A DNA stretch of 64,000 bases from Minisyncoccota bacterium (GCA_020059585.1 JAGVBU010000002.1:27566-91565); one strand, 5' to 3'; numbered from the stretch's first letter, positions 30,091-63,717 are shown. A program made the numbers and translations. Notes: generated by a model from the letters alone, not told the origin.

Positions 30091-30095
30091 GGTTC

Positions 30096-31110: not shown

Positions 31111-31184
31111 GCGGGCGTAGCTCAGCTGGTTAGAGCGATTGCCTGTCACGCAATAGGTCGCCGGTTCGAGTCCGGTCGCCCGCG
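31111..31184 (+). tRNA. tRNA-Asp (anticodon GUC).
   Basis: Acceptor GCGGGCG/CGCCCGC. D-arm GCTC-AGCTGGTTA-GAGC. Anticodon stem ATTGC/GCAAT with loop CTGTCAC. T-arm GCCGG-TTCGAGT-CCGGT. Discriminator G. Confidence 0.85.
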
Positions 31185-46287: not shown

Positions 46288-46340
46288 AGATAACGTTGTT
46301 CGAATCGGAGACCCTTTCTCTCGAATATCCGCGTTCCCAC

Positions 46341-46637: not shown

Positions 46638-46642
46638 AATAG

Positions 46643-47230: not shown

Positions 47231-47248
47231 TGTATAGAATATACCGCC

Positions 47249-47800: not shown

Positions 47801-47806
47801 AATAAT

Positions 47807-48907
47807 TTATGAAAAATATCTCCGCGCGAGCCCAAGCGCAAGAGCAAATTCGTTCTCAAGCGATTTCACTGCCGGCTCAAGCCTTTCCGGATATCGCATT
47901 CCCATAAACGCGGAATGATGTGATGCTGTGAGCCCCGTCTGTGCCGCGAAATGCTTTTCGATTCCCGTAAGATTCGCTCCTCCGCCGACGAGCATGAATT
48001 TTTCTATCTTCTTTCCGTACCGCCGCTCATATACATCCTTCGCATGCCTCGTTTCCTGTATTATAACATCTAAAAACGGAAGAAGTAATGTTGATAACTC
48101 CGAATCGGCGCCGAGAGAGGAAAGCCCTCTGCGACACTTTAACTCCTCCGCCCGTATCATGCTTATATCAAGGCTCCGCGCAAGCGCCTGCGTGAGATAA
48201 ATACCGCTATAATCCGTCTGTTCTATCTGCCGGATTGTTCCTTTTTCCACCACCGCAATGTCCGTTGACTGCGCACCTATGTCCACAAGAAGCGTAGGCG
48301 CTTCGGAAAAAAACTTTCCAAGCGCGCGAAGAAGCGCAAATTGTTCTATTTCCATTCCCACGATTTTCAATCCAGCGTCTTTGTATATTTTCTTATATCG
48401 CGCGATTACATCATTTGGAATTCCCACAAGAAATACTCTCTGAAATTTCTGCCCCTGTCCCCCGTCATATTGTTCCATAGGGAACCACTCCACGGAGACC
48501 TCCTTTATCGGCATCGGAATATACTGTTGCGCTTGGAATATGATGCTCCGCGCCATTTCGTCGGGAGAAAGAAGGGGCATATCAAGCACCGTGGTAAAAC
48601 TTGTGAACGCGGGGATCGAACACACCACGAGATTTGTTTTCGGCCTCATTTCTTTCATTAATACGCGAAGAATTTCCGAGGTTTCTTTTTCTGAAATTTT
48701 CAGCGAACTCGTCTGTATCGCTTGATTGGGAAAATAGAGATATTTTTTCGTTCCCAGTATCCCGTAATTCGCGAGTGAAAATACCTCGCCGTCGCGCGTA
48801 ATCTCGACCGCCTTTATGGACACGGTGCCTATGTCAACGCCGAGTACGGTACCTCCTTTGAAAAAATTCCCCACATCTCGGAAAAACTCAAGAAAATTCA
48901 GCTTCAT
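47807..48907 (-). CDS. pilM: Type IV pilus assembly protein PilM (actin-like ATPase fold).
   Basis: VLGVDIGTVSIKAVEI phosphate-1 motif, later DIGAQSTD. Confidence 0.8.
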   Translation of the reverse strand: MKLNFLEFFRDVGNFFKGGTVLGVDIGTVSIKAVEITRDGEVFSLANYGILGTKKYLYFPNQAIQTSSLKISEKETSEILRVLMKEMRPKTNLVVCSIPAFTSFTTVLDMPLLSPDEMARSIIFQAQQYIPMPIKEVSVEWFPMEQYDGGQGQKFQRVFLVGIPNDVIARYKKIYKDAGLKIVGMEIEQFALLRALGKFFSEAPTLLVDIGAQSTDIAVVEKGTIRQIEQTDYSGIYLTQALARSLDISMIRAEELKCRRGLSSLGADSELSTLLLPFLDVIIQETRHAKDVYERRYGKKIEKFMLVGGGANLTGIEKHFAAQTGLTASHHSAFMGMRYPERLEPAVKSLENEFALALGLARRYFS

Positions 48908-48964
48908 TTCCTTTCATTATACCCTACTGACGCAAAAAATTCACCGCTCGTATACAATAAGTGT

Positions 48965-49678
48965 ATGCATCGGTTCCTCTCATATCTCATTGATATGATT
49001 ATCCCCCCTCAATGCGCGATATGCCACGCGCCTGTCTCTACGAACTTTTTTCCCGCGTGCGATGCGTGTATTTCATCTTTCGTAGCGCACGACTTCTTGT
49101 TCTGTCCTCAATGCGGAAATAGGATTATCACTCTATCGTCTCCCTGCCATAAAAATGCCGGCTATATCCTTGGCGCGGCTACCTTGTTTTCGTTTCCCGC
49201 GGCACAGACCCTTATTCACGCGCTCAAATATAAACATGAAGAGTACGCGTCCGCGGTAATAGGAAAGATCCTTGCGGAATATTTTCTCCGTACATGCCCC
49301 GAATTCATATCCGATTCGTGCATTATTGTTCCTGTTCCCACGTCAAAAACACATCTGAGAAAACGCGGATACAATCAGGCGGAACGTATCGCGCGCGCGT
49401 TCGCGCGCAACGCGGGACTCCACCAATCTGCCGTGCGCGATCACCTCATTAAAAAAATTCGAACCACGCGATCGCAGACCGAATGCGCTACCGTGCGCGA
49501 GCGCGCGGAAAATATCAAGGATAGTTTTGCGATAAATCCGAACGAAGAAATCCGCGGAAAAGATATCATTATTATTGACGATGTGCATACCACCGGCGCC
49601 ACAATGCGGGAATTGGCGCGCATTCTGAATACGCACAGCGCGAGGAAAATCCTCGCGCTTGTATTTGCAAAAACCTAA
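48965..49678 (+). CDS. comF: ComF-family competence protein (phosphoribosyltransferase domain).
   Basis: N-terminal Cys cluster CAIC...CDAC...CPQCG. PRTase motif IIIIDDVHTTGAT. Confidence 0.8.
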   Translation: MHRFLSYLIDMIIPPQCAICHAPVSTNFFPACDACISSFVAHDFLFCPQCGNRIITLSSPCHKNAGYILGAATLFSFPAAQTLIHALKYKHEEYASAVIGKILAEYFLRTCPEFISDSCIIVPVPTSKTHLRKRGYNQAERIARAFARNAGLHQSAVRDHLIKKIRTTRSQTECATVRERAENIKDSFAINPNEEIRGKDIIIIDDVHTTGATMRELARILNTHSARKILALVFAKT

Positions 49679-49693: not shown

Positions 49694-52600
49694 CTATCGT
49701 TCCTGATATATCTGTCCTCCTCGTCCCACGTCGCGGCAATCTGAGTTCACCTTACATTGCTGTTCGGATTCTTCTATCTCGGGAACATTTCCTATGATAC
49801 GCGAAGAACGATATCCCGGAATCTCGTAATCGCAATAACTGTTTCTTGTACACACAGGATGATTTTCAAGGGGCGCGCCGCTTATATCACGGAGCGTTTT
49901 TGTCGCGCCGACAAGATCCCAATCGGTTTTGTCTAATTCACTGTATACAAGACGCACGCGATACACATATACGGTATCTGGTTCAAGATTTATATTATCT
50001 TTGAAAGAAGGAATGGATACCGTGCTGCTTGTCATCGAGAAATATCCGTCGAGATTACTCGGCTGGCTCTGCACTCCGTGCGCCACCTCGGTCTGTTCCG
50101 CGATTATTTCCTCCGCTCTCTTCTCCGCGTATTCCACAACTTTCTCAACGCGTCCCGTGAGTTCGGCTATTTGCGCTTTCATAAATGAATAGAATCCGCT
50201 GATACTCTCCGTGATATTCGCGAACATTCCCCGACGGTCATTTTCTTCAACATTCCCCTCCGCCGCACCGACGCGAAGCGCGCGATAGAGCGTTCCCGAA
50301 ACATCCGCAAGAAACGTTCCCACCTTTTCTCGCGCGTTCCGGACAATTAAAGGAATCTGCTTCACGTCATATACCGCGCTTCCATCACCATCTCCGCCGG
50401 TAAACGAGGCGGTGATACTCTTATTCGCATTCATAACGAAAGCGCACGTTGATGTTCCCGTACACGCGCCGGACCATCCTGTAAACGAGGATCCTCCCCG
50501 TGGCGCGGCAGCGAAGGAAGCGTTTGTGCCCTCCATAATCCACGCGGAACATACCTCTCCGGAAAGATGCTGGTCCGAGCAATTAATTCCACCCGTTCCC
50601 GTCACCGTCCCCAATCCGGAAATGCTCACCGTGACCTGAAACTCCACCGGTTCGAAGTTCGCCTGCGCGGGATCTGCATTTCCCGTGAACGCGCACACGG
50701 GCAAATCGTTTCCTCCGTTACAGGAAACTCCTGACCAATTCAAGAAAGAATAATGGAAATTTTCCGCGGCATTCAAAGTGACGAGTGTCCCGTGGGGAAA
50801 TTCCGCGGTGCATGTTCCCGGACATGATATCGCGCCCGTGCTATCGGATACCGATCCTCCTTCAGAGGGATTTCTTGCCGCCCTCACCACAAAATACGTA
50901 TATCCGCTTCCATTTAATTTCGAAGAATATACCATCTGCCCGTTGTAGGGACCCCCATCATCTATCGTTCGGTACGATTTTACCTCGTATGTATACTGCA
51001 CTCCCGGAGAAAGTGCATCGAGACTCGTTCCGAAACCGGTATCCGTGTAGGTTACCGTTCCTCCCGTCCCCTCGCTTCTCGGCACGCTCGTTGTCGCGAC
51101 GCCATCGGGTCCTCCCGTGCGCTTGATCTCAAAACCATGTTCCCGCGCGGAATTATCAGTCCACGAAATTCTTATTTGAGATCGCGAAAGGGGCGTCACT
51201 ACGATATTCGTGGGCGCGATGGGACGCGTGGTCGTGCTCACAAGCGTTGATTCATCAATGCGCGAATAGGTGTATTTACTGCACGCGATCGGCGGTTTTT
51301 CTGTTCCCCCTCGTTCGAGTTCACTTATCGCGACATATGCCTTTGAAAGATCCACCGTTGAACAGGAGCGGATGCGATAGAAATATGTCGTCGCTTCCAC
51401 TACGGAAGAATCGTTAAACGCAAAATATTTATTCGTATTCGGAGGAAGAGGCGTGATGTCGTTGTGTCCGTATACGTCTATTGTCGTTGATGAGGTGTCA
51501 GACGAGGTAAATTGCGCGCTCGTACTCGTCGTCCGTTCCAATTCGTGATAATAGGGAGTTGATGTGGTGTTATTTTTCCATTCGAGACGTATTACGCTCG
51601 CTGAGGTTGATGTCGCGCTGAACTGCGTGCTTGTCGCGGGCGTCACCTTTATTCGCTGAACTTCAAATGTGTATGGAGATGTGGATGTCGCGTTATCTTT
51701 CCAGTTTACGTAGATAAGATTTGGGGAAACAGCAAACGCTTTCGTTCGCGAAGGAACATCAGAAATATACTTTCCCGCGAATGTACGGCACGGGCCGTAT
51801 ATCCCCGTCGTAGTTGCGAAACCGTTTCCATATGTTGTTTTCAACTGATAGTAATAATCCGTACTTGTCGAAAGCGATGTCTGAAGATAGTCGCCACTTC
51901 CCGTTCCCGTCGTATCTCCAAGCACTCCCGTAAGCGGGCTCGCAGGAACGGGATTGTTCTGCGGCACCGCCGCGAAATAAAGCGTTCTCGTGTGGGGCGC
52001 GTACGAGGGATAGAGCTGAGGTGTCCAATTTCCGTATCGCTCTCTCCATGCAATTCCCATGCTCGTCGCCTCATTCGAGGTGCATTGCAGAATGTCGTAT
52101 GGCGCGCCTACATTCACGCGCGCTGACGCGCGGGCAACGGAACTCGATGCAAAAATGAAATACGATCCCGATGTTCTGTCTGCAGAATAGGTCGCGGGGG
52201 TGCCGACAACGCTTGTCACGTCGGGCGCGATCGTTCCCCACGCCGCGGAACCGCCGCGGACCGCATTATCGCCCAATTCATTCGTGCCCACATACCACGT
52301 CGCGGGGGCGGTTGCGGTAAAATCTACTTTTTCAAAAATCGCGGTGTTTATCGATCCCGAGGGAGCGATGAGTATTCCTCCAGGGGTAAGCGTCCCCGTC
52401 GTAAACGCGAACCATCCCGTTCCCGAAATTCCTCCCCACATAAGTCCTGAGAGATCTTTGTTCACCACGCTTCCGTCACCCGCGCAGTCGACACCCGTCA
52501 TAACCTCCATCGTGCCGAATATTCCATTATCGACGGGCGCAACCGACGTGCTTCCCCCGAAGCAGACGCCGTACCCGTTTCCGCGCAGACTCACCCAGCC

Positions 52601-54253
52601 GTATTCTCCATCCGCGTCGGTGAATTTCGCCCATCCGGAAATCTTCCCTGTCGCCTTATCAAGGCGCGCCTCGCATGCTCCATATCCAGCAGGACATCCC
52701 GAAAGCCCCGATTGCGTGAACGAAAGCCATCCGTATTTATACTTCCCATCAACTCCCGTAGTCGCGCCCCACGCCCTTCCCCAAAGAAGTCCCGAGGGAT
52801 CGCTCACTACCCTGATTCCATCACCCGAAGACGGATTGAAACTCACCCATCCAGTTCCCCCAATATTTCCCGTTGCGGAATCCCTGTGCGCTCCCCACGC
52901 GTATCCGGAAAATTCAAACTCCGCGGTCACGTAACGAAGGTCGACAGACGCCTCGGATGAATAGCTTGAATATGAATATGGCGCGGTTCCTCCGGCGCGC
53001 ACGCGCACCCTGTACTCATAGAGTTTATTCGGAGCGAGAGAAAGCGTATATTCCATCGCGGGAGGATTTCCCGACACAAGATAGGTTGGGGTGCTTGGAA
53101 ACGCGGCACCGTCAATCGCTTCGAAAATTTCTATCGCGCGAGGATTCACGGAGGTATTGTCCTGCCACGAAAGCTTCACAGAAATATTTCCCTGTCCGGT
53201 AATCATCGGATCGAACGAATATGAAGCCGAAAAGGGATTCGGCGCGTTCAATCCGACAGACACCATTGATTTAGCATAATAGGAGATTCCAGTGATTCCA
53301 TTCTGCGTCCGCACCGATCGCACTCTCCAATAGAGCGTCTGGTTTTGTGAAATAATTTCGCTGTATGACGTTCCGTTCACCACGCGGGTGGTGGGAGACG
53401 AGAACGACTGATCTGTCGCGTATTGCAATTCATAACTTCCCGCTTCCGCGGCGGCGTTCCATGAAAAGTCTATCCTCCACGAGGTTCCTTCGGGTGTCGC
53501 TCCCGACTGCAAATTTCCCGGCGTTGCCGGAACGATAATCACTCCCGAGAAAGGAGAGAATTTTGCAATATTTCCATCACTCGACTTCGTAATATCCCCT
53601 ATAAAACATCCCATGTCCGTTTGGAACGATTTCAGCGAAAAATAATGAGGAGTCGAGGTGCTGAAAAAATCCTCATAATAATTCCACACATCCCCCGCAA
53701 GCAGGCTCACGCCATTCGAGTTGGTGGGCGTTCCCGTATCCGAATAATAAACGCGATATCCTCCGTTCCTGAGCGTCAACTGATTCCAATTGATAGTAAG
53801 TTTCGTCCCGTCGCTGTTCCAGCTGTTCCCTCCGATATTCGGCGTGGGAGGCGTCATGACCGCGGGAGTCGTTGCTGATTTTTCCTGATTGCTCCACGGA
53901 GAGTCGGGGCCGATGAGACGCCGCGATTTGACGCGATACGTATAAAGCGTTTCGGGACGCACCACGCTCGAATCCTCGTGCGTGTACGTGACTGAGGAAC
54001 AGTTGGAACTGCACCCGAATCCAAGTCCCCAATCTCCGGAATACGAACCTCCATTTATCTTCCAGCTGATAATGAACTCATCAACGGGTCCTTGCGGTTG
54101 TGTCCACTGAAGTTCGGTCTGACACGCGGACGGCGCGTCGACTCTGTTGAGATTCGGCGCTTGTGGCGTTTGCGCGTGCAGAAAGCGCACCGTAACAAAC
54201 CCGAGACCAAGCGCGAAAAGGAGCGCGAACAAACCTGTAAGAATCTTTCTCAT
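49694..54253 (-). CDS. Giant (1519 aa) secreted protein with multiple fibronectin-type-III-like repeats.
   Basis: Signal peptide MRKILTGLFALLFALGLGFVTVRFLHAQ. Repeated W..P...Y.Y.V FN3-like segments (e.g. ETLYTYRVKS, YEYRVRV, YTYEVKS). Confidence 0.8.
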   Translation of the reverse strand: MRKILTGLFALLFALGLGFVTVRFLHAQTPQAPNLNRVDAPSACQTELQWTQPQGPVDEFIISWKINGGSYSGDWGLGFGCSSNCSSVTYTHEDSSVVRPETLYTYRVKSRRLIGPDSPWSNQEKSATTPAVMTPPTPNIGGNSWNSDGTKLTINWNQLTLRNGGYRVYYSDTGTPTNSNGVSLLAGDVWNYYEDFFSTSTPHYFSLKSFQTDMGCFIGDITKSSDGNIAKFSPFSGVIIVPATPGNLQSGATPEGTSWRIDFSWNAAAEAGSYELQYATDQSFSSPTTRVVNGTSYSEIISQNQTLYWRVRSVRTQNGITGISYYAKSMVSVGLNAPNPFSASYSFDPMITGQGNISVKLSWQDNTSVNPRAIEIFEAIDGAAFPSTPTYLVSGNPPAMEYTLSLAPNKLYEYRVRVRAGGTAPYSYSSYSSEASVDLRYVTAEFEFSGYAWGAHRDSATGNIGGTGWVSFNPSSGDGIRVVSDPSGLLWGRAWGATTGVDGKYKYGWLSFTQSGLSGCPAGYGACEARLDKATGKISGWAKFTDADGEYGWVSLRGNGYGVCFGGSTSVAPVDNGIFGTMEVMTGVDCAGDGSVVNKDLSGLMWGGISGTGWFAFTTGTLTPGGILIAPSGSINTAIFEKVDFTATAPATWYVGTNELGDNAVRGGSAAWGTIAPDVTSVVGTPATYSADRTSGSYFIFASSSVARASARVNVGAPYDILQCTSNEATSMGIAWRERYGNWTPQLYPSYAPHTRTLYFAAVPQNNPVPASPLTGVLGDTTGTGSGDYLQTSLSTSTDYYYQLKTTYGNGFATTTGIYGPCRTFAGKYISDVPSRTKAFAVSPNLIYVNWKDNATSTSPYTFEVQRIKVTPATSTQFSATSTSASVIRLEWKNNTTSTPYYHELERTTSTSAQFTSSDTSSTTIDVYGHNDITPLPPNTNKYFAFNDSSVVEATTYFYRIRSCSTVDLSKAYVAISELERGGTEKPPIACSKYTYSRIDESTLVSTTTRPIAPTNIVVTPLSRSQIRISWTDNSAREHGFEIKRTGGPDGVATTSVPRSEGTGGTVTYTDTGFGTSLDALSPGVQYTYEVKSYRTIDDGGPYNGQMVYSSKLNGSGYTYFVVRAARNPSEGGSVSDSTGAISCPGTCTAEFPHGTLVTLNAAENFHYSFLNWSGVSCNGGNDLPVCAFTGNADPAQANFEPVEFQVTVSISGLGTVTGTGGINCSDQHLSGEVCSAWIMEGTNASFAAAPRGGSSFTGWSGACTGTSTCAFVMNANKSITASFTGGDGDGSAVYDVKQIPLIVRNAREKVGTFLADVSGTLYRALRVGAAEGNVEENDRRGMFANITESISGFYSFMKAQIAELTGRVEKVVEYAEKRAEEIIAEQTEVAHGVQSQPSNLDGYFSMTSSTVSIPSFKDNINLEPDTVYVYRVRLVYSELDKTDWDLVGATKTLRDISGAPLENHPVCTRNSYCDYEIPGYRSSRIIGNVPEIEESEQQCKVNSDCRDVGRGGQIYQER

Positions 54254-54370: not shown

Positions 54371-55702
54371 TTAAAACTGGACGGGAATGTACTTAATCGA
54401 AATCGAATCGATAAACTGTTTCTGTCCCGGCCATGGAGGAATAAATATTTTAATATTGCTTATACCGACAGTCACATCATTGTTCCTGCTGAAAAATGTA
54501 TACCAATCACCCGACATAAAACCTCCCGCCCCTCCACCAAGGTCAGAAGACATTTCAGTACTATCTAGAATCTTAAACGATGTCGCTTCATTAGGACCGC
54601 CCCCCGTGTTTACTGTAAATGAGGTGACGATTCCCTTCACCCCAAGATCATGTATTCCTATGCCAAGATTTGAGCGCGATACTGTTTTTGATTCACCATA
54701 TTCAAGATCGGCGACTTTCACCTTTGCCGACGTAATGGTCCCCCCTACCGATATATTCCCTACGCTAAGTGTAGCGGTATCCGTCGGACTCCCGACGTTC
54801 CGCGTCTCGTACACGTAGTTCATTGATCTGTACGTAGGAAATCCCGTGTGCTGCAACAACTCTTCGTGGTAATACCTGCACTCCGCGTTTGTACCGAATA
54901 CATAGAGTTCACCAGAAAGACCGTTCCAAGAGGGACAGTCCGCAAATTCATCGATTCCAGTCATTCCAGCGGTCGGTGCCGATCCGTCCTTGAGCCCGCC
55001 GCCGTAGAACGCACCCGTTCCCTGAGGACATTGCTTATAAAACCTGTTCGTGTCGCATGCAAGAACTTCTCCAATCACATCGGCCTGAGCGGTTCGCACC
55101 AACGCAAATGTATTTTTATGATTTGCCCCAATAGTTCCCGTGTTCCAAAATCCGGTCTGAGTCCCCTGAGTCACATTTGTGATTTTCACATTTCCACCTC
55201 CATATGTGAGAGTTCCGGACTGCATACTCCAATATGAATCTCCCCCTCCGCTTCCCGTCCCCACGTCCTTCCATGCCGTTCCATCATTGAACTGGACTTT
55301 TTTTCCTCCTACGTTATAACGAAGCAGTCCCTCTGTCTCTGAAGATGCGCCCGTTGAACCAACTGGCAAAGAAAGACCCGCGCCATATATTTTAACAATA
55401 TCTTTACTTGAACCGACACCAAATATAATCCGTGAGGTATTATCGACGTTTCCGATCCATGAGTTATTTCCAACTAAAACCGTGTCTCTATATTCAGACG
55501 GAAAACTAATCCTTCCTTCTTTCGATTGATTGGAACTCCCCGTATCAATCGGGATCCCTGTATTCGCATTCGGGAATGAATCGGTCGGAGGCGCCCACTG
55601 GTACTGCTGCGCTCCCACTACCTGAATGAGAGCTCCCAGAATCATGAGTCCGAAGACGGATCCGGCGACGAAGATGAGTTTGTTTTTGAGCTCTTGCTTC
55701 AT
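54371..55702 (-). CDS. Secreted or membrane-anchored hypothetical protein (443 aa).
   Basis: N-terminal hydrophobic segment. Gly/Thr/Ser-rich. No catalytic motif. Confidence 0.6.
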   Translation of the reverse strand: MKQELKNKLIFVAGSVFGLMILGALIQVVGAQQYQWAPPTDSFPNANTGIPIDTGSSNQSKEGRISFPSEYRDTVLVGNNSWIGNVDNTSRIIFGVGSSKDIVKIYGAGLSLPVGSTGASSETEGLLRYNVGGKKVQFNDGTAWKDVGTGSGGGDSYWSMQSGTLTYGGGNVKITNVTQGTQTGFWNTGTIGANHKNTFALVRTAQADVIGEVLACDTNRFYKQCPQGTGAFYGGGLKDGSAPTAGMTGIDEFADCPSWNGLSGELYVFGTNAECRYYHEELLQHTGFPTYRSMNYVYETRNVGSPTDTATLSVGNISVGGTITSAKVKVADLEYGESKTVSRSNLGIGIHDLGVKGIVTSFTVNTGGGPNEATSFKILDSTEMSSDLGGGAGGFMSGDWYTFFSRNNDVTVGISNIKIFIPPWPGQKQFIDSISIKYIPVQF

Positions 55703-55762: not shown

Positions 55763-56659
55763 TTATTTCTGCAGGATCATTTTCTTCGTCTCGGTGTACT
55801 GTCCTGCGGTGAGACGATAAAGATAAATTCCACTCGAGAGACCTGACGCGTCAAATGTGACGGTGTAGGTTCCCGGATACTTTTCTTCGTTTACAAGTGT
55901 TGCAACCTCTCTTCCGAGCATGTCGTATACAGTAATCTGTACATACGCACTACTCAATACTGTATACCTGATACTCGTTGTGGGGTTGAACGGATTGGGA
56001 TAGTTCTGGAAGAGGGAGAACGATTCAGGGAGATTAAACTCATCCTCAATACCGACAATCGTGGTATCTTCGAAAGAATCGATGAGGAAATAGGTTCCAA
56101 ATTCATCGTTCTTGATACCACGAAGAAAATCAAAACCAATTTCCATAAGTCTTATCGGTGTTCCTAATTGATATCGAGGAAAAATCCGCACACGCATGCG
56201 ATCTACCGAATCAGGAAGAGTTCCCTGAAAATAACCCCCTGTTTCCACAATTGTAGGAGCACCTCCCCCCTGAATTCCTGCTGTCGATAAAGAAACAAAA
56301 CCATCGCTGTTTCCCATTGAGAATATATAAGATCCAAACGTATTTGTTCCGTTCGGGATTATAGTCACCTGACCGAAATACCATATAAGTCCCTTTGGCG
56401 TTTCTATCTTCGGAATCATCTTTTCAAACTCGACATATGAGGGTTTTCCGGAATCATACACCTTCAAGCGAAACACCTGATAGTTGTCGCCGTTTGTATC
56501 CTGCGGAACTCCACCCGACGTGATGATTCTCGACGACGCCTCCCATACATTGAGGGTGTCAGCAACATACCATCCGTTTACCGTCCCGTTCTGGATCTGC
56601 CCAAAACTCAAACTTGTGACGAAGAGAAATGCTACGAATGTTAAGAATGCTCTTTTCAT
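55763..56659 (-). CDS. Secreted protein ending in a canonical type IX secretion system C-terminal sorting domain (Por_Secre_tail).
   Basis: Signal peptide MKRAFLTFVAFLFVTSLSFGQ. The last ~80 aa read NYPNPFNPTTSIRYTV...ITVYDMLGREVATLVNEEKYPGTYTVTFDASGLSSGIYLYRL...TKKMILQK, a near-consensus T9SS CTD. Confidence 0.75.
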   Translation of the reverse strand: MKRAFLTFVAFLFVTSLSFGQIQNGTVNGWYVADTLNVWEASSRIITSGGVPQDTNGDNYQVFRLKVYDSGKPSYVEFEKMIPKIETPKGLIWYFGQVTIIPNGTNTFGSYIFSMGNSDGFVSLSTAGIQGGGAPTIVETGGYFQGTLPDSVDRMRVRIFPRYQLGTPIRLMEIGFDFLRGIKNDEFGTYFLIDSFEDTTIVGIEDEFNLPESFSLFQNYPNPFNPTTSIRYTVLSSAYVQITVYDMLGREVATLVNEEKYPGTYTVTFDASGLSSGIYLYRLTAGQYTETKKMILQK

Positions 56660-56778
56660 GGCATTCCTCCTTTCATTTATTTATTGATTGTAATTAGTTC
56701 CTTATGCTGCTTTTATTATAGCACACAATGACAAAAAACGCAAGATTATGCGTTTTTTGTCAAGTGCTGCCGCCCTTT

Positions 56779-57645
56779 TCACGCGCGGGAGACCATTCTC
56801 TTTATCGCCACGCATATCCCCGACTCCGTTCCTCGCATATAGTAACAAGCTTTCTTTTTCGTGAAATATTTTATGTCGCGTATTCGTCTCCGCGCGATTT
56901 CCGGCGTGTCTGCCGACATTATAGGAACTGCTCCTGAAAATATTCTGCGCGACACACCCCGTATTTTTCTTGAAGACTCCTCGTAAAGATGCCACTCGAA
57001 TTTTTCTTCATCCCAGCGCTCAATGAATGTCTTTTTTGCCGATTCTTCAACGAACGGGTGTACGAAAAAAGAGATTGGAACCTTTCGTTTTTTTGAAAAC
57101 GCCGCGGGCATTCCGGATATTCCTCTTTTTTTATAAAACTGTTTTTCAAGATACGCGCTTCGCACTCCTCCCGTCGCGATTCCTTTTTTAAAATCAACGA
57201 GAGTTTTTTCATCGGAATATATTTCGCCTTCCCGAATCTCGCCGCATCGGAGCGCGAGACGCGTTTTTCCCATTCCCGTCGCGCCTCCGAAAAAGATAAC
57301 TGCTTTTCCGTCGATTACCGCGGACGAGGAGTGGATGCAATATATACCGCGTTCTTCGCGTGCTCTTTCGAGTATGAATTCAATAATCGAAATGATATCT
57401 TTTTCGTCGTAGGATGGCGCGCGATATTCAGAATACGGAAATCCGCCGGAAAAAGACGCCGCGCCTTTTTTCAGGAGAAGCGTCGCTATGACGGGAATAT
57501 TTTTATCCTCTGAGACACTCGGATCCGGAATATATTCCGCGAGAAATTTCGACGCACGTATTTTTTGCGCCCATGCCGCACTCCATGAGCGGACACGAAC
57601 AGCAACACCCCCCGATTTAACGACGAATGATTTCTTTTCTTTCAT
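56779..57645 (-). CDS. P-loop protein resembling the HPr kinase/phosphorylase C-terminal domain.
   Basis: AVIFFGGATGMGKTRLALRCGEI. Start uncertain; the chosen start overlaps the upstream GT4 gene by 29 nt. Confidence 0.45.
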   Translation of the reverse strand: MKEKKSFVVKSGGVAVRVRSWSAAWAQKIRASKFLAEYIPDPSVSEDKNIPVIATLLLKKGAASFSGGFPYSEYRAPSYDEKDIISIIEFILERAREERGIYCIHSSSAVIDGKAVIFFGGATGMGKTRLALRCGEIREGEIYSDEKTLVDFKKGIATGGVRSAYLEKQFYKKRGISGMPAAFSKKRKVPISFFVHPFVEESAKKTFIERWDEEKFEWHLYEESSRKIRGVSRRIFSGAVPIMSADTPEIARRRIRDIKYFTKKKACYYMRGTESGICVAIKRMVSRA

Positions 57646-58750
57646 ATATTTTTTCGAGCGCGGCGATTTTCTTTTCCCATGCCCATTTTTCCCGCGCGTT
57701 TTTTTCGGCGTTCTTTCCAAGACGTTCCGCCTCATCCTTGTTTTTTAAGAGACGGAGAATCGATTTCGAAATTTCCCGCGCGTTTTCCGGAGAAACCATA
57801 AGGCCATTTTTTTTATGTTTTAGAAATTCCTTCATGCTTCCCGACGTCGTTGTGATTGTAGGCACTCCGTATGTCGCCGCCTCAAGCATCGTGGTAAGTA
57901 CTCCCTCTTTTCCCACTGACGGGGCAACAAGCATTGAGGATCCCCCGAAAAGAGAATCCTTCGTTTTCTCGGACACCCTTCCGAAAAATCGTATATGTTT
58001 TGAAACCCCAAGTTTCCCCGCGAGATTTTCAAGTTCTTTCTTTTGCGGACCATCGCCCGCGATTGCCACTCTCACCTCGGGATAGATTTTTTTTACCTCG
58101 CGGATCGCACGAATGAGATAGGAGACCCCTTTTACGGGAATGAGCCTCCCGATATATAACACATCAAACTTTTCCGCGGGAAGCGTTGATGATGTGTCGG
58201 CAATCGAAGGATCAATCCCGTTTTCCACCACGCGCATTTTTGTTCCCGGAACCATGCGCTCCCATTCTTCTCGAATCTTTTTCGAAACCGCAATAATCTC
58301 GTCAGCTCCGGAAAAAAGCGCGCGGTGCATCGGTTCTGCTTCTCTGGGATATCCATGCAAATGAAGTGCGCTTCTCTGTTTGAGGGGAACGCCAATCATA
58401 TCGTACGCGTTATGAACGGCGACAATATCAAATGCATTTTTTGAAAAGTAAGATAACGCGCGCTGTCCTACATACACGCTTTCCATAATCCAACGGTTCC
58501 ATTCGATTCCGGGTTGCTCCTTATATATCACCGCGTATTCTTTCGGAAGATCAATATACGACACGCGAACTTTTTTGTTTTTTCGGATAAACTCCTTGAA
58601 AAAGTCGGACTGTATTATGTAGGGAGCGCGAACCGTGACTATCGTGACCGTATGTCCGCGCATAGAAAAAAGGCGCGCATGTTCCAGCGGAATAACCTCA
58701 CCTCCGCCAAGATAATAACTCACGCGGGGCTGATATATTGCGATGTTCAT
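57617..58750 (-). CDS. GT4-family (GT-B) glycosyltransferase.
   Basis: C-terminal E-x7-E region GGSSMLVAPSVGKEGVLTTMLEAATYGVPTI and the group-1 architecture. Confidence 0.85.
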   Translation of the reverse strand: MNIAIYQPRVSYYLGGGEVIPLEHARLFSMRGHTVTIVTVRAPYIIQSDFFKEFIRKNKKVRVSYIDLPKEYAVIYKEQPGIEWNRWIMESVYVGQRALSYFSKNAFDIVAVHNAYDMIGVPLKQRSALHLHGYPREAEPMHRALFSGADEIIAVSKKIREEWERMVPGTKMRVVENGIDPSIADTSSTLPAEKFDVLYIGRLIPVKGVSYLIRAIREVKKIYPEVRVAIAGDGPQKKELENLAGKLGVSKHIRFFGRVSEKTKDSLFGGSSMLVAPSVGKEGVLTTMLEAATYGVPTITTTSGSMKEFLKHKKNGLMVSPENAREISKSILRLLKNKDEAERLGKNAEKNAREKWAWEKKIAALEKIYERKEIIRR

Positions 58751-59235
58751 CGAATCAGTTTCTTCAATGATTCCGTCTGCGCGGCGGCAACCGGAGACGA
58801 TATCCACGGGATGTATTCAGAGAGAGAGTCGATAGAAACAAATTTCCGTTCGGATGTCTCGAACTCTCCGTTAAATTCGTCGATTTTCGAAGGGCGGCAG
58901 AAAAACCTGAGTTGCGCGTATTCCTTCCCCTCAACCGAATCATTGTCTGGATCGGATGCATGTACATACCCGACAAGAATAGAATCCTTTATCTCAACCG
59001 ACGCCTCTTCCGCAAGTTCCCTTCGGAGCGTTTCTTCGGGTGTCTCTCCTAATTCAGGATGTCCGCCGGGGAATCCCCATCCGCGATCATTTTTAATGAT
59101 GAGAATCCCGTTATTTTCATCAACGCAAAGTCCCGTCACTTGGGATATTTTTATTGACTCGGGAATTTCACTTGTTTCCACCCATTCGAGATCGATATTT
59201 CTCCCGTCAAACGAAATAGTTTCTTTTATATTCAT
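58747..59235 (-). CDS. NUDIX hydrolase.
   Basis: Nudix box GGHPELGETPEETLRRELAEEASV. Start and stop both sit in ATGA overlaps with the flanking genes. Confidence 0.8.
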   Translation of the reverse strand: MNIKETISFDGRNIDLEWVETSEIPESIKISQVTGLCVDENNGILIIKNDRGWGFPGGHPELGETPEETLRRELAEEASVEIKDSILVGYVHASDPDNDSVEGKEYAQLRFFCRPSKIDEFNGEFETSERKFVSIDSLSEYIPWISSPVAAAQTESLKKLIR

Positions 59236-59849
59236 ATGTGAGTATTATCTTCCGGTTTGTTTTCCTCGTCAAAAATTTCCCACAATTCAGAGGGAAGTGT
59301 TCCCCTTGCCTTCAGTTCGTCAAACTTTCTTCCGAGGATGAGCTTTAGGCTTTCAAGCGCCTCTTCCGCATTGTCCGCGGTGTGCATCACGTTCTTTTGG
59401 GTAAGAAGTACGGATACCTCGTCTTGATTCGGATGCTCTCCTTTTTCCCAGAGCGATATATCGTCTTCGGATATTCGGGGGTGTTTTTGAAACTTTTCCC
59501 TGATAATCCCGTCCTTCTCTCCGTCTTTTTTCAAACGAGAAAGGACTTTTTGCGCCTCCATCTCCTTACCGCCCACAAGAAGTGCAATCGCATCGTGCGT
59601 GGTTAAATACTTTTTCATCGCATCAAAAAAGTGCTCCTTTTTCGATTCTTTGTATATATGATCCACCGCATCTCCGCTCAAACGCACCATCGCCCTGTAT
59701 ATGACCTCAAGTCCATGTGTTTCCAATATTTTTTCTATCTCAGGAAGGTCCTCTATAAAATCCGGCTTAATGAATGCAAACGCAATTTCGTTTTTCGGCA
59801 TAGATTCCCTCACCTCGGCTGATGGATCTGGTTTTTTTTCGAAATTCAT
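59232..59849 (-). CDS. Nucleoside-diphosphate-kinase-like protein with an internal insertion.
   Basis: NDK fold markers FAFIKPD, HFFDAMKKYLTTHDAIALLVGG, NVMHTADNAEEA (His-active-site region), plus a ~40-aa insert. Confidence 0.5.
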   Translation of the reverse strand: MNFEKKPDPSAEVRESMPKNEIAFAFIKPDFIEDLPEIEKILETHGLEVIYRAMVRLSGDAVDHIYKESKKEHFFDAMKKYLTTHDAIALLVGGKEMEAQKVLSRLKKDGEKDGIIREKFQKHPRISEDDISLWEKGEHPNQDEVSVLLTQKNVMHTADNAEEALESLKLILGRKFDELKARGTLPSELWEIFDEENKPEDNTHI

Positions 59850-60613
59850 ATATGTGTAAACTCGTTTATGAGAAAAATAATTCCTCTTGCGCCCCGATAC
59901 GGAGCGTGAAGCGCGCATTTCTTTGCATACTGCTCCGTTGCGTTTTTGACGGACGCGAACGCGATTGCGCTTTTTCCGATTGCTACCACGTCTTCGCAGT
60001 CACTCACCATGAGTACATCATATGAGCTGAGATGTCTTTTCGCAACATATTCGAGCGTCGATATCCTGTTTTGCGTCGCGTTTCCCGCAATGAGCTTCCC
60101 TTTTCCGCAGCGTTTCACGTACGCGCTCGCTCCTTCGTGTTTCAAAAAATCGCTGATTTTCCGTCTCACCCGCGCAATATCATAATCGCTCTCTTGCGAG
60201 TGTCTCCTTATGTAGATGCTTGAGGTAAATTTCCTGTGCGGCGTGACAATAATCGTTGGATCTTTCGCGGCACGGATGATTCTCTTGTCTTTCGCGATTT
60301 TCAAAACGTATGATCCTATCCCTCCGTTACGCAAAAGGAAACGTATCACCATCTCATTGATCGGAAGCACGTCAGGCATCGTGATTTTCCGAGTTCCTAT
60401 CGCGGCGCGATATTCGGCTCCATCTTCCGCGATAATGGGACCGTTCAAATTAAGTTCCTTGTGAATTTTTTCCGCTTCGGAAAACGGCCTGCTCGTGTTG
60501 ATCCCGAACACCACTCCTTTTTTCATTGCGCCTGCCACATGTTTTCTGATCGTATCAAGCGATCGGAGGGGGAGCGTCCCATCTATATCGAAAAATATCG
60601 ATTTTTTATTCAT
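59846..60613 (-). CDS. HAD-IIB-type phosphatase (sugar-phosphate or glycosyl-3-phosphoglycerate phosphatase-like).
   Basis: Motif I FFDIDGTLP. C-terminal motif SDCEDVVAIGKSAIAFA. Start taken at MNKKSIFF. Confidence 0.7.
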   Translation of the reverse strand: MNKKSIFFDIDGTLPLRSLDTIRKHVAGAMKKGVVFGINTSRPFSEAEKIHKELNLNGPIIAEDGAEYRAAIGTRKITMPDVLPINEMVIRFLLRNGGIGSYVLKIAKDKRIIRAAKDPTIIVTPHRKFTSSIYIRRHSQESDYDIARVRRKISDFLKHEGASAYVKRCGKGKLIAGNATQNRISTLEYVAKRHLSSYDVLMVSDCEDVVAIGKSAIAFASVKNATEQYAKKCALHAPYRGARGIIFLINEFTHI

Positions 60614-61623
60614 GAATGTTTCCTTTTTGTTGATATGGTCGCCTTCCATTGATCGCTCGGACGAAACCACGGAAGTCGCGCGCACAAAAGTTCCACTTTC
60701 ACAACCCACGAAAGAGTGGCACGCATTACAAGAAACAGAAGCCATAGCATTTTTTCTTTTCCGGGAGCGGCACGCCATTTTTTCCAATCGGTTTTCCTTT
60801 TTTTATGGAGATTCAGATATCGATATTCGGGGAACCACTGCCTGATCTTTTCAACCTCAATCCCCGTCCTTCTGTGCACGTTCCACCAGTCAAAAAGAGA
60901 GCCCACTGGAAACGAGAAGCATTCCGCGTCATCAACCTGACATATTGCGTTGGATCCATACGTGTGGAGAATGTAGTTTGACATAAACACATCATCCGCG
61001 TAGAGAAGCGTCGTGCCTTTTGTATATTTAAGAAGATGCGCGCCTGTTGCGTTTTTTCTCGCGCGTGCCGCAATCTCTTCATATTTCGGTATGTACCAGT
61101 CCCGCGTCGCAAAGAGCCTTCCGTGAAAATATTTTCTCTGGTGAAGCATTCTCTGCTCATCGTATAAATGACCCATCCTTCCGAATATAGAGATGCGATT
61201 TCCTCGCGTTATAGGCACCGTTCTCGCGTATGCGACAACCGTGTTCTTGTCGCGGGCGAACGCGGATAAAATGTTTTTTATGGAGTGCGCCCCTATTATA
61301 TTGTCTCCGTCGGGGAAAATGTGTATTTCCGCGGGATAAAGTTCCACTATTTTTCTTTGCGCGTTCACTAACCCTTCCTCGCTCTGTATGATTTCCACGC
61401 GGATATCGCTAAATTTCTTTTGAAAATCTCTTACTAATTTTTCGGTATTATCGGAACATCCGTTGATACACACCACAAGCGGCGTATCTTTCACGATATC
61501 CGCCTCGTACATTGCGGCACGTATCGAAGAGAGACACTCGGAAATTGATTTTTCCTCGTTTCTTACCGGAAGCCCTATTGTGATTGTGGGTTTTTCCCGC
61601 ATGACGGTTCTTGTACTAGTCAA
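60610..61623 (-). CDS. GT2-family (GT-A) glycosyltransferase.
   Basis: TITIGLPVRNEEKSISECLSSI...CINGCSDNT and a DxD-type region FPDGDNI. Confidence 0.8.
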   Translation of the reverse strand: MTSTRTVMREKPTITIGLPVRNEEKSISECLSSIRAAMYEADIVKDTPLVVCINGCSDNTEKLVRDFQKKFSDIRVEIIQSEEGLVNAQRKIVELYPAEIHIFPDGDNIIGAHSIKNILSAFARDKNTVVAYARTVPITRGNRISIFGRMGHLYDEQRMLHQRKYFHGRLFATRDWYIPKYEEIAARARKNATGAHLLKYTKGTTLLYADDVFMSNYILHTYGSNAICQVDDAECFSFPVGSLFDWWNVHRRTGIEVEKIRQWFPEYRYLNLHKKRKTDWKKWRAAPGKEKMLWLLFLVMRATLSWVVKVELLCARLPWFRPSDQWKATISTKRKHS

Positions 61624-61699
61624 AAAAGGTATGTGTTTACAATATAATAATTATATAAAAAAGTCAATATCCTTTACTCACTCGCGAATTGTGGTAGGG

Positions 61700-63217
61700 C
61701 TACATTTTTTCCGAGGGTTTCACGGGAGTGAACGAGACGTCTGAAAGAATATAGCGTGATATTCCCAATGTGTGAAACTGCTGAAGCGCCGTCTTCTCGA
61801 ACCACGGGAAGCATCGATCGTAGAAAAGAATCTCAAACGGAGCGCGACACCCCACTCCCCGACAATCGCCGGAAACTTCCATGCGGGCGATTTTGTTTTC
61901 CGCAAGAAGAGGCGCCGACCATGACGTTTTGTCATCCATGGAAATGATTGTGCCTCGTACCCTCATTCCCGAATCAGGAAAAAGGGGGCACATATCAGAA
62001 ATCGATCGTACGGAAGGAAAAGCATAGGAGAGATTTCTTTTTTTCACAAACGAGAAGTGTGTTTCATCCTCTTCCGCAACGGATTCATAAATTCCGACTC
62101 CAGAAAAATCATATATTTTTTTATCATCTCCTCCCTTCTCTGAAACGAATCGAACCACGTCTCCTTTTTCTATATGTTTCAGAAAATATCGCGGATTCTT
62201 CTGTGTATAAGAACAGGAAAAGGAATTATACATGACAGAGAGAAGGATAGTAACACAAAAAAAGAACCACGCCGCGCGTTTCATGCGCGCCGCGTACCAT
62301 GCACCGAAAAGCGCCGCGATAAACACAAACGATTGGAAAAACGGGATCGTCACCGTATCCACCGTGTAGGAAAATCCGTATATCGCCATGAGTATTCCTC
62401 CCCCGACGAAAAAATACGCGGCAATAGCGATGCCCGCGTTTTTTGCGTGACGCCAAAACGAATGAGCCGGCGATGAGAGAAGAAGCGTCGCCATGACAGG
62501 CAAAAACAATATTGTTTCGTGGGAAAACGCGCCCCCATCCGGTATGTTCTTTAAAACGCTGAATGAGGCGATGAGGAGAAGTATGAAATACATCCAATGT
62601 TCACGCTCATGATGCTCGCGGTATTCCCTCGTTTTTTGCACCACGGATACGAGTACAAGAAACACCGACACAGCAAAAAGAAGAGGAAAGATGAACGCAA
62701 TTTCCGGAGGCATTATATCCGCATATGCCTCGCCTCCCTCATACGCGGTACCGAACACATCGCGCAACAATCCGTTATATAAGGATATCCCTACTTTAGG
62801 AATATGATTATGATAGAACGCGCTCGCCGAAAGATCGGAACGATCTGACACAAATAGAGTATCGCGGAACGGAATATCTCCCTGCGCGTAGAACGCTGCG
62901 GAATAAAGCGTGCCGAAGATAAACGCGACGGACACGAATACTACCGCGGCCCTCGCGAATACGCGCGCGCGCGAAACAATTTGTTTTTTCCATCTTTCTA
63001 AGAGAAGTAACGCAATCCCCGCAAAAAATCCATAAGAAAAGAAGAGGAGGACGCGAATTGATGAGGATCCGTATGAGAAAAAATTGATGAAAAATTTAAA
63101 TACAATATGGAGAAGAAACGGAAAAGCAATTGCCGCTCCAAAGAGTGTGGCGCAAATCAGAGAAAAAAACGCATACCCACGCTTTTCCGTAAATGCTTTC
63201 ATTAAAAAAGCTACCAT
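61700..63217 (-). CDS. Hypothetical polytopic membrane protein (about 505 aa).
   Basis: About 9 TM helices plus a C-terminal soluble domain. No recognisable motif. Confidence 0.55.
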   Translation of the reverse strand: MVAFLMKAFTEKRGYAFFSLICATLFGAAIAFPFLLHIVFKFFINFFSYGSSSIRVLLFFSYGFFAGIALLLLERWKKQIVSRARVFARAAVVFVSVAFIFGTLYSAAFYAQGDIPFRDTLFVSDRSDLSASAFYHNHIPKVGISLYNGLLRDVFGTAYEGGEAYADIMPPEIAFIFPLLFAVSVFLVLVSVVQKTREYREHHEREHWMYFILLLIASFSVLKNIPDGGAFSHETILFLPVMATLLLSSPAHSFWRHAKNAGIAIAAYFFVGGGILMAIYGFSYTVDTVTIPFFQSFVFIAALFGAWYAARMKRAAWFFFCVTILLSVMYNSFSCSYTQKNPRYFLKHIEKGDVVRFVSEKGGDDKKIYDFSGVGIYESVAEEDETHFSFVKKRNLSYAFPSVRSISDMCPLFPDSGMRVRGTIISMDDKTSWSAPLLAENKIARMEVSGDCRGVGCRAPFEILFYDRCFPWFEKTALQQFHTLGISRYILSDVSFTPVKPSEKM

Positions 63218-63717
63218 GGATTTTTTTTCATTTTGAGCGTGTAGCCCAAAAAAGAAATAAGGGGATGAAACGTGAGTGCAAGCGCGATTCCGAAGATAGC
63301 GTGGCGCAATGGCATATCCGCAAAAAGAAAAAGAAGGATCGCGGCGCACGCCGTTGCATCAATCCTGTCGAGAAGGGGGAATTTATACCCCGAAGGAAGA
63401 CCAAGACGCCTTTTTACAAAACTTCCCAAAAGCGTGTGCCCCAAAAATGCCCCTCCAGCACCAAAAATGGATACCGAAAAATCTCCAACCACGAGATATC
63501 CCGCGGCTATTCCGATGATAAGCCCCACACACGCAACGCCCACGTTCCGGTTGTCTCCTAGGAGTCTTCTTCCATCAAAAAAATTTTTAGAAAAATCTAT
63601 AGGAACATCGGGAACGCGCAACGCGGATGCGAGCGCCCCCACGATCACAAAAAGCATGTTCGTAATCCACGCGGGAAAAAAGAAAAAAAATGTCTCGAAT
63701 ACGAATGCTTCCACCAT
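63211..63717 (-). CDS. CdsA/CarS-like CTP-transferase family membrane protein (DUF46-type).
   Basis: GSFVKRRLGLPSGYKFPLLDRIDA resembles the S/K-RR-x-G...DR-x-D cytidylyltransferase signature. Confidence 0.45.
   Translation of the reverse strand: MVEAFVFETFFFFFPAWITNMLFVIVGALASALRVPDVPIDFSKNFFDGRRLLGDNRNVGVACVGLIIGIAAGYLVVGDFSVSIFGAGGAFLGHTLLGSFVKRRLGLPSGYKFPLLDRIDATACAAILLFLFADMPLRHAIFGIALALTFHPLISFLGYTLKMKKNPW

Follow-up and report, generated by a model that had tools for sequence, protein, structure and literature searches.

A 64,000-nucleotide stretch of DNA from a Minisyncoccota bacterium (GCA_020059585.1, JAGVBU010000002.1:27566-91565; hereafter the window, with positions counted from its first letter) carries on its minus strand, from 61602 down to 56779, six open reading frames (ORFs) without any intergenic DNA between them. 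They code for two glycosyltransferases (GTs) of families GT2 and GT4, a HAD-IIB phosphatase, a protein similar to nucleoside-diphosphate kinase (NDK-like), a Nudix hydrolase and a putative P-loop kinase with the fold of phosphoenolpyruvate carboxykinase (PEPCK) and HprK. This set of six genes is a conserved, functionally linked module, found in the Candidate Phyla Radiation (CPR, or Patescibacteria). Its features, in the order of transcription, are as follows.

61639..61667, minus strand: promoter-like pair of hexamers (TTGACT and TATTGT, 17 nt apart), 37 nt ahead of the GT2 start codon, from a sigma-70-like consensus scan only
60610..61602, minus strand: GT2 glycosyltransferase (GT-A fold, inverting type), 330 aa
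60610..60613, minus strand: ATGA overlap of the GT2 stop and the HAD start
59846..60613, minus strand: HAD-IIB (Cof-like) phosphatase, 255 aa (Pfam Hydrolase_3, 2.1e-8)
59846..59849, minus strand: ATGA overlap of the HAD stop and the NDK-like start
59232..59849, minus strand: NDK-like protein, 205 aa (Pfam NDK)
59232..59235, minus strand: ATGA overlap of the NDK-like stop and the Nudix start
58747..59235, minus strand: Nudix hydrolase, 162 aa (Pfam NUDIX, 5e-16)
58747..58750, minus strand: ATGA overlap of the Nudix stop and the GT4 start
57617..58750, minus strand: GT4 glycosyltransferase (GT-B fold, retaining type), 377 aa (Pfam Glycos_transf_1, 9.4e-40)
57617..57645, minus strand: 29-nt out-of-frame overlap of the GT4 3' end (stop TAA 57617-57619) and the kinase start (ATG 57645)
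56779..57645, minus strand: putative mini PEPCK/HprK-fold P-loop kinase, 288 aa, of a Patescibacteria-restricted family
56729..56762, minus strand: hairpin of 14 perfect base pairs whose 3' arm is U-rich, beginning 16 nt past the kinase stop; probable operon terminator

The ORF starts in the window were checked against the N-termini of homologues. The GT2 gene starts at ATG 61602, as in the 100%-identical 330-aa database protein P0207, and the kinase gene at ATG 57645, which is also the start of the 100%-identical 288-aa protein P0036 and is used by 24 of the 26 aligned homologues, while the N-termini of the HAD, NDK-like, Nudix and GT4 proteins line up with those of their homologues. In each ATGA junction the ATG of the downstream gene shares its TG, followed by A, with the TGA of the upstream gene. 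All four junctions lie exactly where the original prediction had placed them on the minus strand; the 29-nt overlap between the GT4 and P-loop frames was likewise found as described, and Pfam agrees with all five family calls made then (GT2, HAD-IIB, NDK-like, Nudix and GT4). Overlaps of the 4-nt ATGA type are the commonest class in compact prokaryotic operons. Among the 11 NTGA overlaps in the window with both frames open for at least 100 codons, four belong to this operon and only about two to four others fall at real gene junctions, so that the run of four is non-random (less than 1% by a rough estimate). The GT4 and kinase genes share exactly 26 nt, read in different frames, in 10 out of 10 orthologous operons of the Parcubacteria type (L001, L003, L004, L009-L012 and L016-L018), compared to 29 nt in the window, which suggests a conserved coupling or re-initiation arrangement for this pair. 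All other junctions in these operons range from −56 nt (overlap) to +125 nt (gap). Since junction lengths vary in this way, the chain of ATGA overlaps is a lineage-specific compaction and not a conserved trait, and the strict translational coupling and fixed stoichiometry previously deduced from it over-read a chain that orthologous operons do not keep. From the ATGA overlaps taken together with the conserved GT4/kinase overlap, we may reasonably infer at the sequence level that genes of the operon are translationally coupled. The hairpin, which with an outer 4-bp stem extends over 56723-56767 and then begins 11 nt past the kinase stop, folds as RNA with −23.8 kcal/mol (z = −4.4), and none of 200 shuffles was as stable. 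The six genes look like one predicted transcript. Matches to promoter-like hexamers were not enriched over shuffles, which makes the site upstream of GT2 weak evidence. The G+C content of the operon (46.3%) is close to that of the window (47.5%), and nothing points to a recent import.

The linkage of the six genes was studied in loci from other genomes, covering ±10 kb around each module. The scans rest on two peptide patterns, by which divergent members are under-sampled; ORFs in the loci were called mechanically (by greedy choice of the longest ORF), and taxon names are record titles. For the counts, ORFs were labelled by profiles seeded from the window proteins, and loci with kinases more than 90% identical were removed, leaving 39 non-redundant loci. 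Homologues of the NDK-like protein, the kinase and GT2 were found in Patescibacteria or on metagenomic contigs only. The same six genes occur in the same order in three contigs with wholly different flanks. The order is methyltransferase-Nudix-GT4-kinase-NDK-Nudix-GT2'-HAD'-Nudix in Shapirobacteria and Collierbacteria, and Nudix-GT2'-GT4-kinase, with Nudix, NDK-like and HAD' genes close by, in WWE3 and Amesbacteria. Here, GT2' stands for a different GT2 subfamily of 520-540 aa, whose N-terminal 240 aa gave no significant match, and HAD' for a HAD-IA protein weakly similar to pyrimidine 5'-nucleotidases. The GT4 gene lies immediately upstream of the kinase gene in 34 of the 34 testable cases among the 39 non-redundant loci; one locus, L029, breaks this order (kinase-Nudix-GT4-GT2). 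Within seven genes of the kinase, a Nudix and a GT-A gene are both present in 20/20 loci, an NDK-like gene in 17/20, a HAD gene in 13/20 (an undercount, as fused HADs were labelled GT2) and a methyltransferase gene in 10/20. The module has a constant core of Nudix, GT4 and kinase; a GT-A enzyme is always present, a phosphatase and an NDK-like protein usually are, and an S-adenosylmethionine (SAM) methyltransferase occurs in about half of the loci. It consists of two sub-units, GT4 with the kinase and the GT-A enzyme with the phosphatase and Nudix, to which a nucleotide phosphotransferase is added in most loci. The Nudix protein is often present in two or three paralogous copies per module, and variants include a dTMP-kinase-like protein, a CYTH protein or an adenosine deaminase as accessory enzymes. 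The HAD, NDK-like, Nudix, GT2 and kinase proteins all retain their catalytic residues.

Several of these enzymes are also fused. GT2 is joined to HAD in four loci (L009, L017, L028 and L050) and to Nudix in one (L014), HAD-IIB is joined to Nudix in L056, and a BpsA_C domain of methyltransferase fold is joined to the kinase in L029. GT2-HAD fusions on at least four contigs agree with the earlier view of consecutive GT-A and phosphatase steps, and the dense web of fusions indicates which of the module enzymes pass substrates to one another. Dispersal of the genes in relatives, named beforehand as the outcome that would speak against a linked set, was not seen: the genes stay together in all relatives examined despite their reordering, as expected for the self-contained gene set that had been proposed. 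Because the set is kept, reshuffled and even fused across CPR, the module very likely serves one pathway. It is a new arrangement of known kinds of enzymes, restricted to CPR and built around an uncharacterised kinase family; no description of this gene combination was found in the literature available as open-access full text.

In the L029 variant (L029:1094-6278) the fusion of BpsA_C (branched-chain polyamine synthase-like) with the kinase is followed by Nudix, GT4 and GT2, and a divergent dTMP-kinase-like protein replaces the NDK-like one. The methyltransferase adjoining the module elsewhere was considered as a relative of this BpsA_C domain and ruled out, the two being unrelated. In L059 a further N-terminal domain is fused to Nudix; it gave no significant match, and a guess that it is a histidine phosphatase found no support.

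Outside the module, the neighbours across loci are housekeeping genes. Searches with the kinase and the NDK-like protein (tblastn) against 50,697 phage genomes gave no match, and a scan of IMG/VR was likewise empty. Anti-phage defence models gave a generic Nudix match only, and the matches to PHROGs were limited to generic families of GTs and Nudix proteins. As none of these scans yielded a specific match, an origin from mobile elements, viruses or defence systems was rejected.

The kinase, which forms the centre of the module, gave no match of significance to Pfam or NCBIfam, and none to Pfam Hpr_kinase_C at E<0.1. A remote homologue, P0063, reaches 31.7 bits with Hpr_kinase_C (cut-off 33.3), and the kinase itself lies below the PEPCK thresholds (12.2 bits vs 26.5 for PEPCK_ATP, 13.2 vs 590 for pckA). 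Its AlphaFold2 model is confident (pLDDT 92.8) and aligns over 229-233 of the 288 residues with two-lobed PEPCKs and over 117 with the C-terminal domain of HprK. The model has both the P-loop domain of the HprK C-terminus and the two-lobed architecture of PEPCK, and the order of its catalytic elements (His105, the P-loop G120-T128 and S144-D145-E146-K147) matches the layout of the PEPCK/HprK fold. The comparison of folds is in agreement with the HprK-like character first assigned to this protein, which is best described as a miniature PEPCK/HprK-fold kinase of putative activity. PEPCKs, to which it is closer, are small-molecule kinases, while HprK is a protein kinase. A HMMER search of 1.84 billion representative proteins yielded 139 representatives of the family at 50% identity (E <= 1e-30), nearly all of 270-300 aa. 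In the window and the loci, with whole genomes not scanned, no gene resembling ptsH came to notice. In one lineage (L060:415-2817 and L061), two paralogous mini-PEPCK kinases are split by a HAD gene, in the order GT4-kinase-HAD-kinase-Nudix.

The GT4 protein encoded just before the kinase scores 136 bits with Pfam Glycos_transf_1 and 50 bits with Glyco_transf_4, and the glutamates of its E-x7-E motif (E282...E290) are invariant. A match to the Pfam model 'GT4-conflict' was set aside, as the generic GT4 models score much higher. Its nearest solved relatives are PimA (2.4e-15), sucrose-phosphate synthase (3e-14), BshA (1.5e-12) and MshA, the acceptors of which are small phosphorylated or anionic compounds, i.e. 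phosphatidylinositol (PI), fructose-6-P, malate and inositol-1-P.

The other glycosyltransferase, GT2, matches PF00535 (2.5e-11) and has the traits of a GT-A catalytic domain, with D98-x-D100 (DxD) and D203-D204 conserved. A profile search of the PDB returned chondroitin and heparosan synthases, the N-terminal domain of TagF and DPMS, while the best fold matches are HAS, BcsA and the membrane-bound archaeal mannosyltransferase PcManGT, with 264-266 residues aligned to HAS and BcsA; there is also a weak sequence match to the peptide S-glycosyltransferase SunS. The catalytic domain thus resembles the cellulose/hyaluronan-synthase type. It is followed by a single hydrophobic C-terminal helix (residues ~281-307), with no multi-pass or channel region, and the QxxRW motif is absent, a conserved W239...Y-R-R-R-N segment being found at its place. 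The phosphatase shows all of motifs I-IV, and D9-x-D11-x-T13, T40, K173 and S204-D205-x-E207 are conserved across 12 sequences. In a profile search of the PDB, YidA (3e-9), YhaX (7e-9) and SupH (Cof types from 3e-9 to 1e-7) rank above MPGP (1e-4), and the profile favours Cof-type sugar phosphatases over MPGP or phosphomannomutase. The NCBIfam equivalog models are reached by none of the GT2, HAD, NDK-like, Nudix and GT4 proteins.

The NDK-like protein scores 45 bits with Pfam NDK (cut-off 27; 1.3e-11) and is far below the NCBIfam Ndk equivalog (41.1 bits vs 155), although NCBI labels it as a plain nucleoside-diphosphate kinase. By these cut-offs it is a predicted member of the NDK superfamily and not an Ndk orthologue. 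K28, Y66, R117 and N153-x-x-H156, which holds the catalytic His, are invariant, and its NVIHTAD aligns with NVIHASD of 3vvt. The insert of about 40 aa noted originally is real but smaller: residues 118-151 (34 aa) stand for 8 residues of the canonical enzyme after the Arg of the Kpn loop, a net gain of ~26 aa, and W134, H139, P140 and Q142 within it are invariant. The protein also has N- and C-terminal extensions, of which the C-terminal one is conserved. This branch of the superfamily evolves unusually fast. Highly divergent NDK-like proteins of 230-516 aa, found in other loci, keep (I/V)KP, GIRG and NxxH and have much larger inserts than the protein in the window:

L023:7164-7856: divergent NDK-like protein
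L024:13021-14571, minus strand: divergent NDK-like protein
L025:6290-6982: divergent NDK-like protein
L026:11095-11985: divergent NDK-like protein
L027:2731-3621, minus strand: divergent NDK-like protein

In the Nudix protein, the box GGHPELGETPEETLRRELAEEASV fits GX5EX7REUXEEXGU with only the last G replaced by S, and G57, G58, R72, E73 and E77 are invariant. Its best family-model matches are of the MutT/YtkD type. Most of the GT4-adjacent orthologues carry Asp-Pro at +15/+16 past the box, which is absent in L007 and L020; a proline of the X-loop ~16 residues past the Nudix box correlates with ADP-ribose diphosphatases, although as a correlate only (PMC5389931).

What these enzymes would do together can be proposed with some caution. 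Our tentative reading, which we favour without considering it probable outright, is that the module constitutes a cytoplasmic, nucleotide-coupled route to a small glycoside via a phosphorylated intermediate. The kinase would provide a phosphate handle by phosphorylating either the acceptor or the first intermediate to carry a sugar; the retaining GT4 would add one sugar and the inverting GT2 another, both from nucleotide-sugars, and the HAD phosphatase would then take the phosphate off. Nudix would cleave a nucleotide-diphosphate-linked substrate, intermediate or by-product and thereby feed the phosphatase, and the NDK-like protein (the dTMP-kinase-like one in one variant) would re-phosphorylate the released nucleoside mono- or diphosphate to the triphosphate pool, conserving nucleotides. 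As far as is known, CPR genomes mostly lack de novo nucleotide synthesis. The fusions of GT and phosphatase suggest that the transferase makes a phosphorylated glycoside which the phosphatase dephosphorylates, and the fusion of HAD with Nudix suggests cleavage of a pyrophosphate followed by dephosphorylation of a nucleotide-linked compound. Similarly, the two-lobed, PEPCK-like architecture of the kinase and the types of acceptors used by the relatives of GT4 would favour a small, anionic acceptor. Given the amount of nucleotide-handling enzymes, the leading candidates for the acceptor may be an aglycone derived from a nucleoside or nucleotide, or else a small metabolite of anionic character. 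A precedent for the pairing of GT and phosphatase is the fused TPS/TPP of Thermoproteus tenax, the operon of which has a second GT (PMC3634074).

Several observations weigh against such a soluble route. All family assignments stop at the superfamily level and give no substrate for any of the enzymes, and the module contains no enzyme making nucleotide-sugars. In fold, GT2 comes closest to processive synthases embedded in the membrane and to an archaeal mannosyltransferase that is membrane-bound, and it has a hydrophobic C-terminal helix; this would suit an acceptor at the membrane interface, or a polymer, better than a soluble one. Of the six proteins, four (GT2, HAD, GT4 and kinase) are very basic (pI 9.6-9.9), which would also be fit for binding to membranes or nucleic acids. 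Different lineages fill the GT-A and phosphatase slots with proteins that are not orthologous, and the product may therefore vary from one lineage to the next; the fusions would agree with several roles for Nudix, among them substrate supply, cleavage of an intermediate, by-product removal and control of the donor pool. The weakest points are the choice of the acceptor and the likeness of the GT2 fold to membrane-associated or processive synthases.

The same features of GT2 underlie the alternative that survives best, even if we regard it as rather unlikely: a pathway at the membrane interface, in which GT4 and GT2 would decorate a lipid (a scavenged phospholipid or diacylglycerol, or polyprenyl phosphate) or start an envelope glycan, while the kinase and phosphatase act on the head group and the nucleotide enzymes recycle the donor by-product. 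The fold matches to HAS, BcsA and PcManGT, the hydrophobic helix, the rank of PimA as best solved relative of GT4 and the basic character of GT2, HAD, GT4 and the kinase would all fit, as would the two genes just upstream in the window, which code for a multi-pass membrane protein of 549 aa and a CarS-like lipid enzyme. However, these two neighbours are not kept beside the module in other loci, and transmembrane prediction found none of the six proteins to have a clear transmembrane segment, nor are there channel-forming helices. In the GT2-HAD fusions HAD directly follows the hydrophobic helix, and stand-alone HADs have no signal peptide, so this helix is unlikely to cross the membrane. Moreover, no flippase, polymerase, ligase, initiating or polyprenyl-phosphate transferase adjoins the module in any locus, and HAD-IIB enzymes of the Cof type typically act on soluble sugar phosphates.

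If the nucleotide enzymes are instead given the most weight, the module could glycosylate modified nucleotides or nucleic acids, by analogy with hydroxymethyl-cytosine in phage T4. Nudix and a nucleotidase would shape the pool, the kinase and the NDK-like protein would raise a modified nucleoside monophosphate to the triphosphate, and the GTs and the methyltransferase would modify a nucleoside, RNA or DNA. Such enzymes do pile up in the loci, with one to three Nudix paralogues, a fast-evolving NDK-like protein with its catalytic His, the dTMP-kinase-like protein, the HAD-IA proteins resembling pyrimidine 5'-nucleotidases, CYTH and adenosine deaminase; methyltransferases are frequent as well, and the GTs and the kinase are basic. 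We nonetheless consider this unlikely, as neither a base-modifying enzyme (hydroxymethylase, TET/JBP-type or radical SAM) nor a nucleic-acid-binding domain was found in the module, its fold makes the kinase a relative of PEPCK and not of nucleoside-monophosphate kinases, and the setting among housekeeping genes, the lack of relatives in phage genomes or viral contigs and the merely generic Nudix match to defence models do not fit it.

The likeness of the kinase to HprK raises a further alternative, in which the target would be a protein or peptide, phosphorylated by an HprK-like Ser kinase and then glycosylated by the GTs, with HAD as the opposing phosphatase. HprK-type kinases act in this manner in some lasso-peptide clusters, and the match of P0063 to Hpr_kinase_C, the weak match of the L029 fusion protein P0142 to 'HprK-related kinase A' and that of GT2 to SunS would be in line with it. 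As a whole protein, however, the kinase is nearer in fold to two-lobed PEPCK, no peptidase, cyclase or exporter is present, and the nucleotide enzymes would have no part to play. No small or precursor ORF is conserved, as none is found in the window and small upstream ORFs elsewhere are inconsistent; a lasso-peptide or other ribosomally synthesised and post-translationally modified peptide is ranked low for this reason, and we deem the alternative very improbable.

The original prediction had taken GT2 and HAD for a glycosyl-3-phosphoglycerate pair, i.e. a glucosyl- or mannosyl-3-phosphoglycerate synthase and phosphatase leading to a compatible solute of the glycerate type, in a route that the second GT would extend. 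The GT-A and HAD-IIB genes do lie side by side, and are fused in several lineages, like pairs of the MpgS/MpgP and TPS/TPP types, and HAD weakly matches the MPGP models. The pair nevertheless fails by both hidden Markov models and fold: GT2 obtains 15.6 bits with the GpgS model (NCBIfam NF010496) against a cut-off of 262, has no match to the Pfam MpgS family, retrieves neither GpgS nor MpgS in the profile search of the PDB, and has other structural neighbours closer than GpgS, MpgS or MGS, while HAD reaches 24.1 bits vs 164.75 and 22 vs 244.35 (TIGR01486 / TIGR02461) and its profile prefers Cof-type sugar phosphatases. Since 3-phosphoglycerate needs no dedicated kinase, the invariant kinase would also be left unexplained, and with a GT2 of cellulose/hyaluronan-synthase likeness and a Cof-like HAD, this assignment can hardly be upheld. 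Equally hard to credit, and already disfavoured, is the absence of any common pathway, with a housekeeping NDK and a MutT-type Nudix sharing a compact transcript with unrelated glycosyltransferases: small CPR genomes do pack unrelated genes tightly, and the NCBI label of the NDK-like protein and the MutT/YtkD-type matches of Nudix would agree with it, but the genes stay associated through their reshuffling in Parcubacteria, Microgenomates and WWE3, Nudix forms single polypeptides with HAD and with GT2, and the NDK-like protein has inserts that are conserved and specific to its family, with a divergence far quicker than expected of a housekeeping NDK.

A further and quite speculative reading is that of a CPR-specific pathway. 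The module might make a glycosylated, sometimes methylated, metabolite derived from a nucleoside or nucleotide, by means of a new family of PEPCK-fold kinases acting on small molecules and of an NDK specialised for a non-canonical diphosphate; the product could possibly be a modified nucleotide meant for RNA or DNA, or a nucleoside-type signalling or antagonistic molecule. We rate this as rather unlikely.

A large part of all bacterial diversity falls within CPR; its members have very small genomes, and most of them are uncultured. A module of six to eight genes which is kept across Parcubacteria, Microgenomates and WWE3 in such tiny genomes points to chemistry that is important to their lifestyle. 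It defines a new family of kinases, ~290 aa long and with a confidently modelled structure, which are PEP carboxykinases in miniature, as well as a specialised branch of NDK. As the six proteins are small and apparently soluble, the pathway could be tested by heterologous expression without cultivating the CPR hosts.

The surroundings of the module yielded some additional observations. The 549-aa protein directly upstream of the operon (61700-63349, minus strand) has at least seven hydrophobic segments and no Pfam match, and the CarS-like membrane protein beside it (63211-63717, minus strand) belongs to the CDP-archaeol synthase family. A membrane histidine kinase (7TM-HisKA-HATPase) adjoins the module in four other loci (L009:7575-9245, L017:3422-5050, L014 and L026), which could be a coincidence or a regulatory link. 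On the other side of the operon, at 55763-56659 (minus strand), lies the gene for a secreted-looking protein of 298 aa that ends in Por_Secre_tail (PF18962, 9.3e-13), the C-terminal sorting signal of type IX secretion; this signal is normally a mark of secretion of the Bacteroidota type, while the genome is otherwise Patescibacteria-like. It is followed by the genes for a secreted-looking 443-aa protein without a family match (54371-55702, minus strand) and for a surface-type protein of 1519 aa that has fibronectin-III and InlB B-repeat-like domains (49694-54253, minus strand). Type IV pilus genes (T2SSE ATPase, PilM and small unannotated genes) and a ComF-like phosphoribosyltransferase, found at 44539-49678, form a typical CPR competence/pilus locus, and six tRNA genes (Rfam) are spread on both strands over 7 kb at 23824-31184. 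The GC skew of the plus strand is persistently negative from ~10 kb to the end of the window, where genes are mostly on the minus strand, which is consistent with a single replichore.

In comparison with known systems, the module is closest in logic to the two-step glycoside-phosphate pathways (TPS/TPP, SPS/SPP, MpgS/MpgP and GpgS/GpgP), in which a GT is likewise found beside a HAD-IIB phosphatase, as the fusions in several module lineages recall, and which also do without export machinery. The TPSP-GT operon of T. tenax shares with it the second glycosyltransferase (PMC3634074). The differences are that the HAD-fused transferase of the module is a cellulose-synthase-like GT2 and not a member of GT20, GT4, GT55 or GT81, that its HAD lies outside the MPGP, SPP and TPP subfamilies, and that the invariant kinase, Nudix and the NDK-like protein are found only on the side of the module. 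Polysaccharide clusters offer another parallel, as the Nudix GDP-mannose mannosyl hydrolase WcaH/Gmm lies in the colanic acid cluster and a Nudix gene is thus placed among GT2 and GT4 genes. In the module, however, Nudix is invariant, often present in two or three copies and fused to the phosphatase or to GT2, and genes for polymerisation and export are missing. Phage T4 modifies its nucleotides by means of a dCTPase, a dNMP kinase and NDK, followed by DNA glucosyltransferases; the combination of a nucleotide pyrophosphohydrolase, a kinase, an NDK-type enzyme and glycosyltransferases is the same, whereas the module is chromosomal, stands in a housekeeping context and has neither a base-modifying enzyme nor viral relatives.

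At the level of single enzymes, the kinase shares with HprK and PEPCK the fold and the layout of His, P-loop GxxGxGK(T/S) and an acidic pair ~17 residues on. With 288 aa it has about half the length of PEPCKs (about 530-600 aa), and its N-terminal lobe aligns with PEPCK but not with HprK. It falls under the Pfam and NCBIfam thresholds of both and, apart from the different order in L029, is encoded directly after GT4; the Patescibacteria hosting it are not known to have a phosphotransferase system. The NDK-like protein differs from canonical NDK by its 34-residue conserved segment in place of 8 residues after the Kpn-loop Arg, by its conserved C-terminal extension and by scores below the NCBIfam equivalog cut-offs, while its place above the Pfam NDK threshold and the K, Y, R, N and catalytic His that it has kept are what the two have in common.

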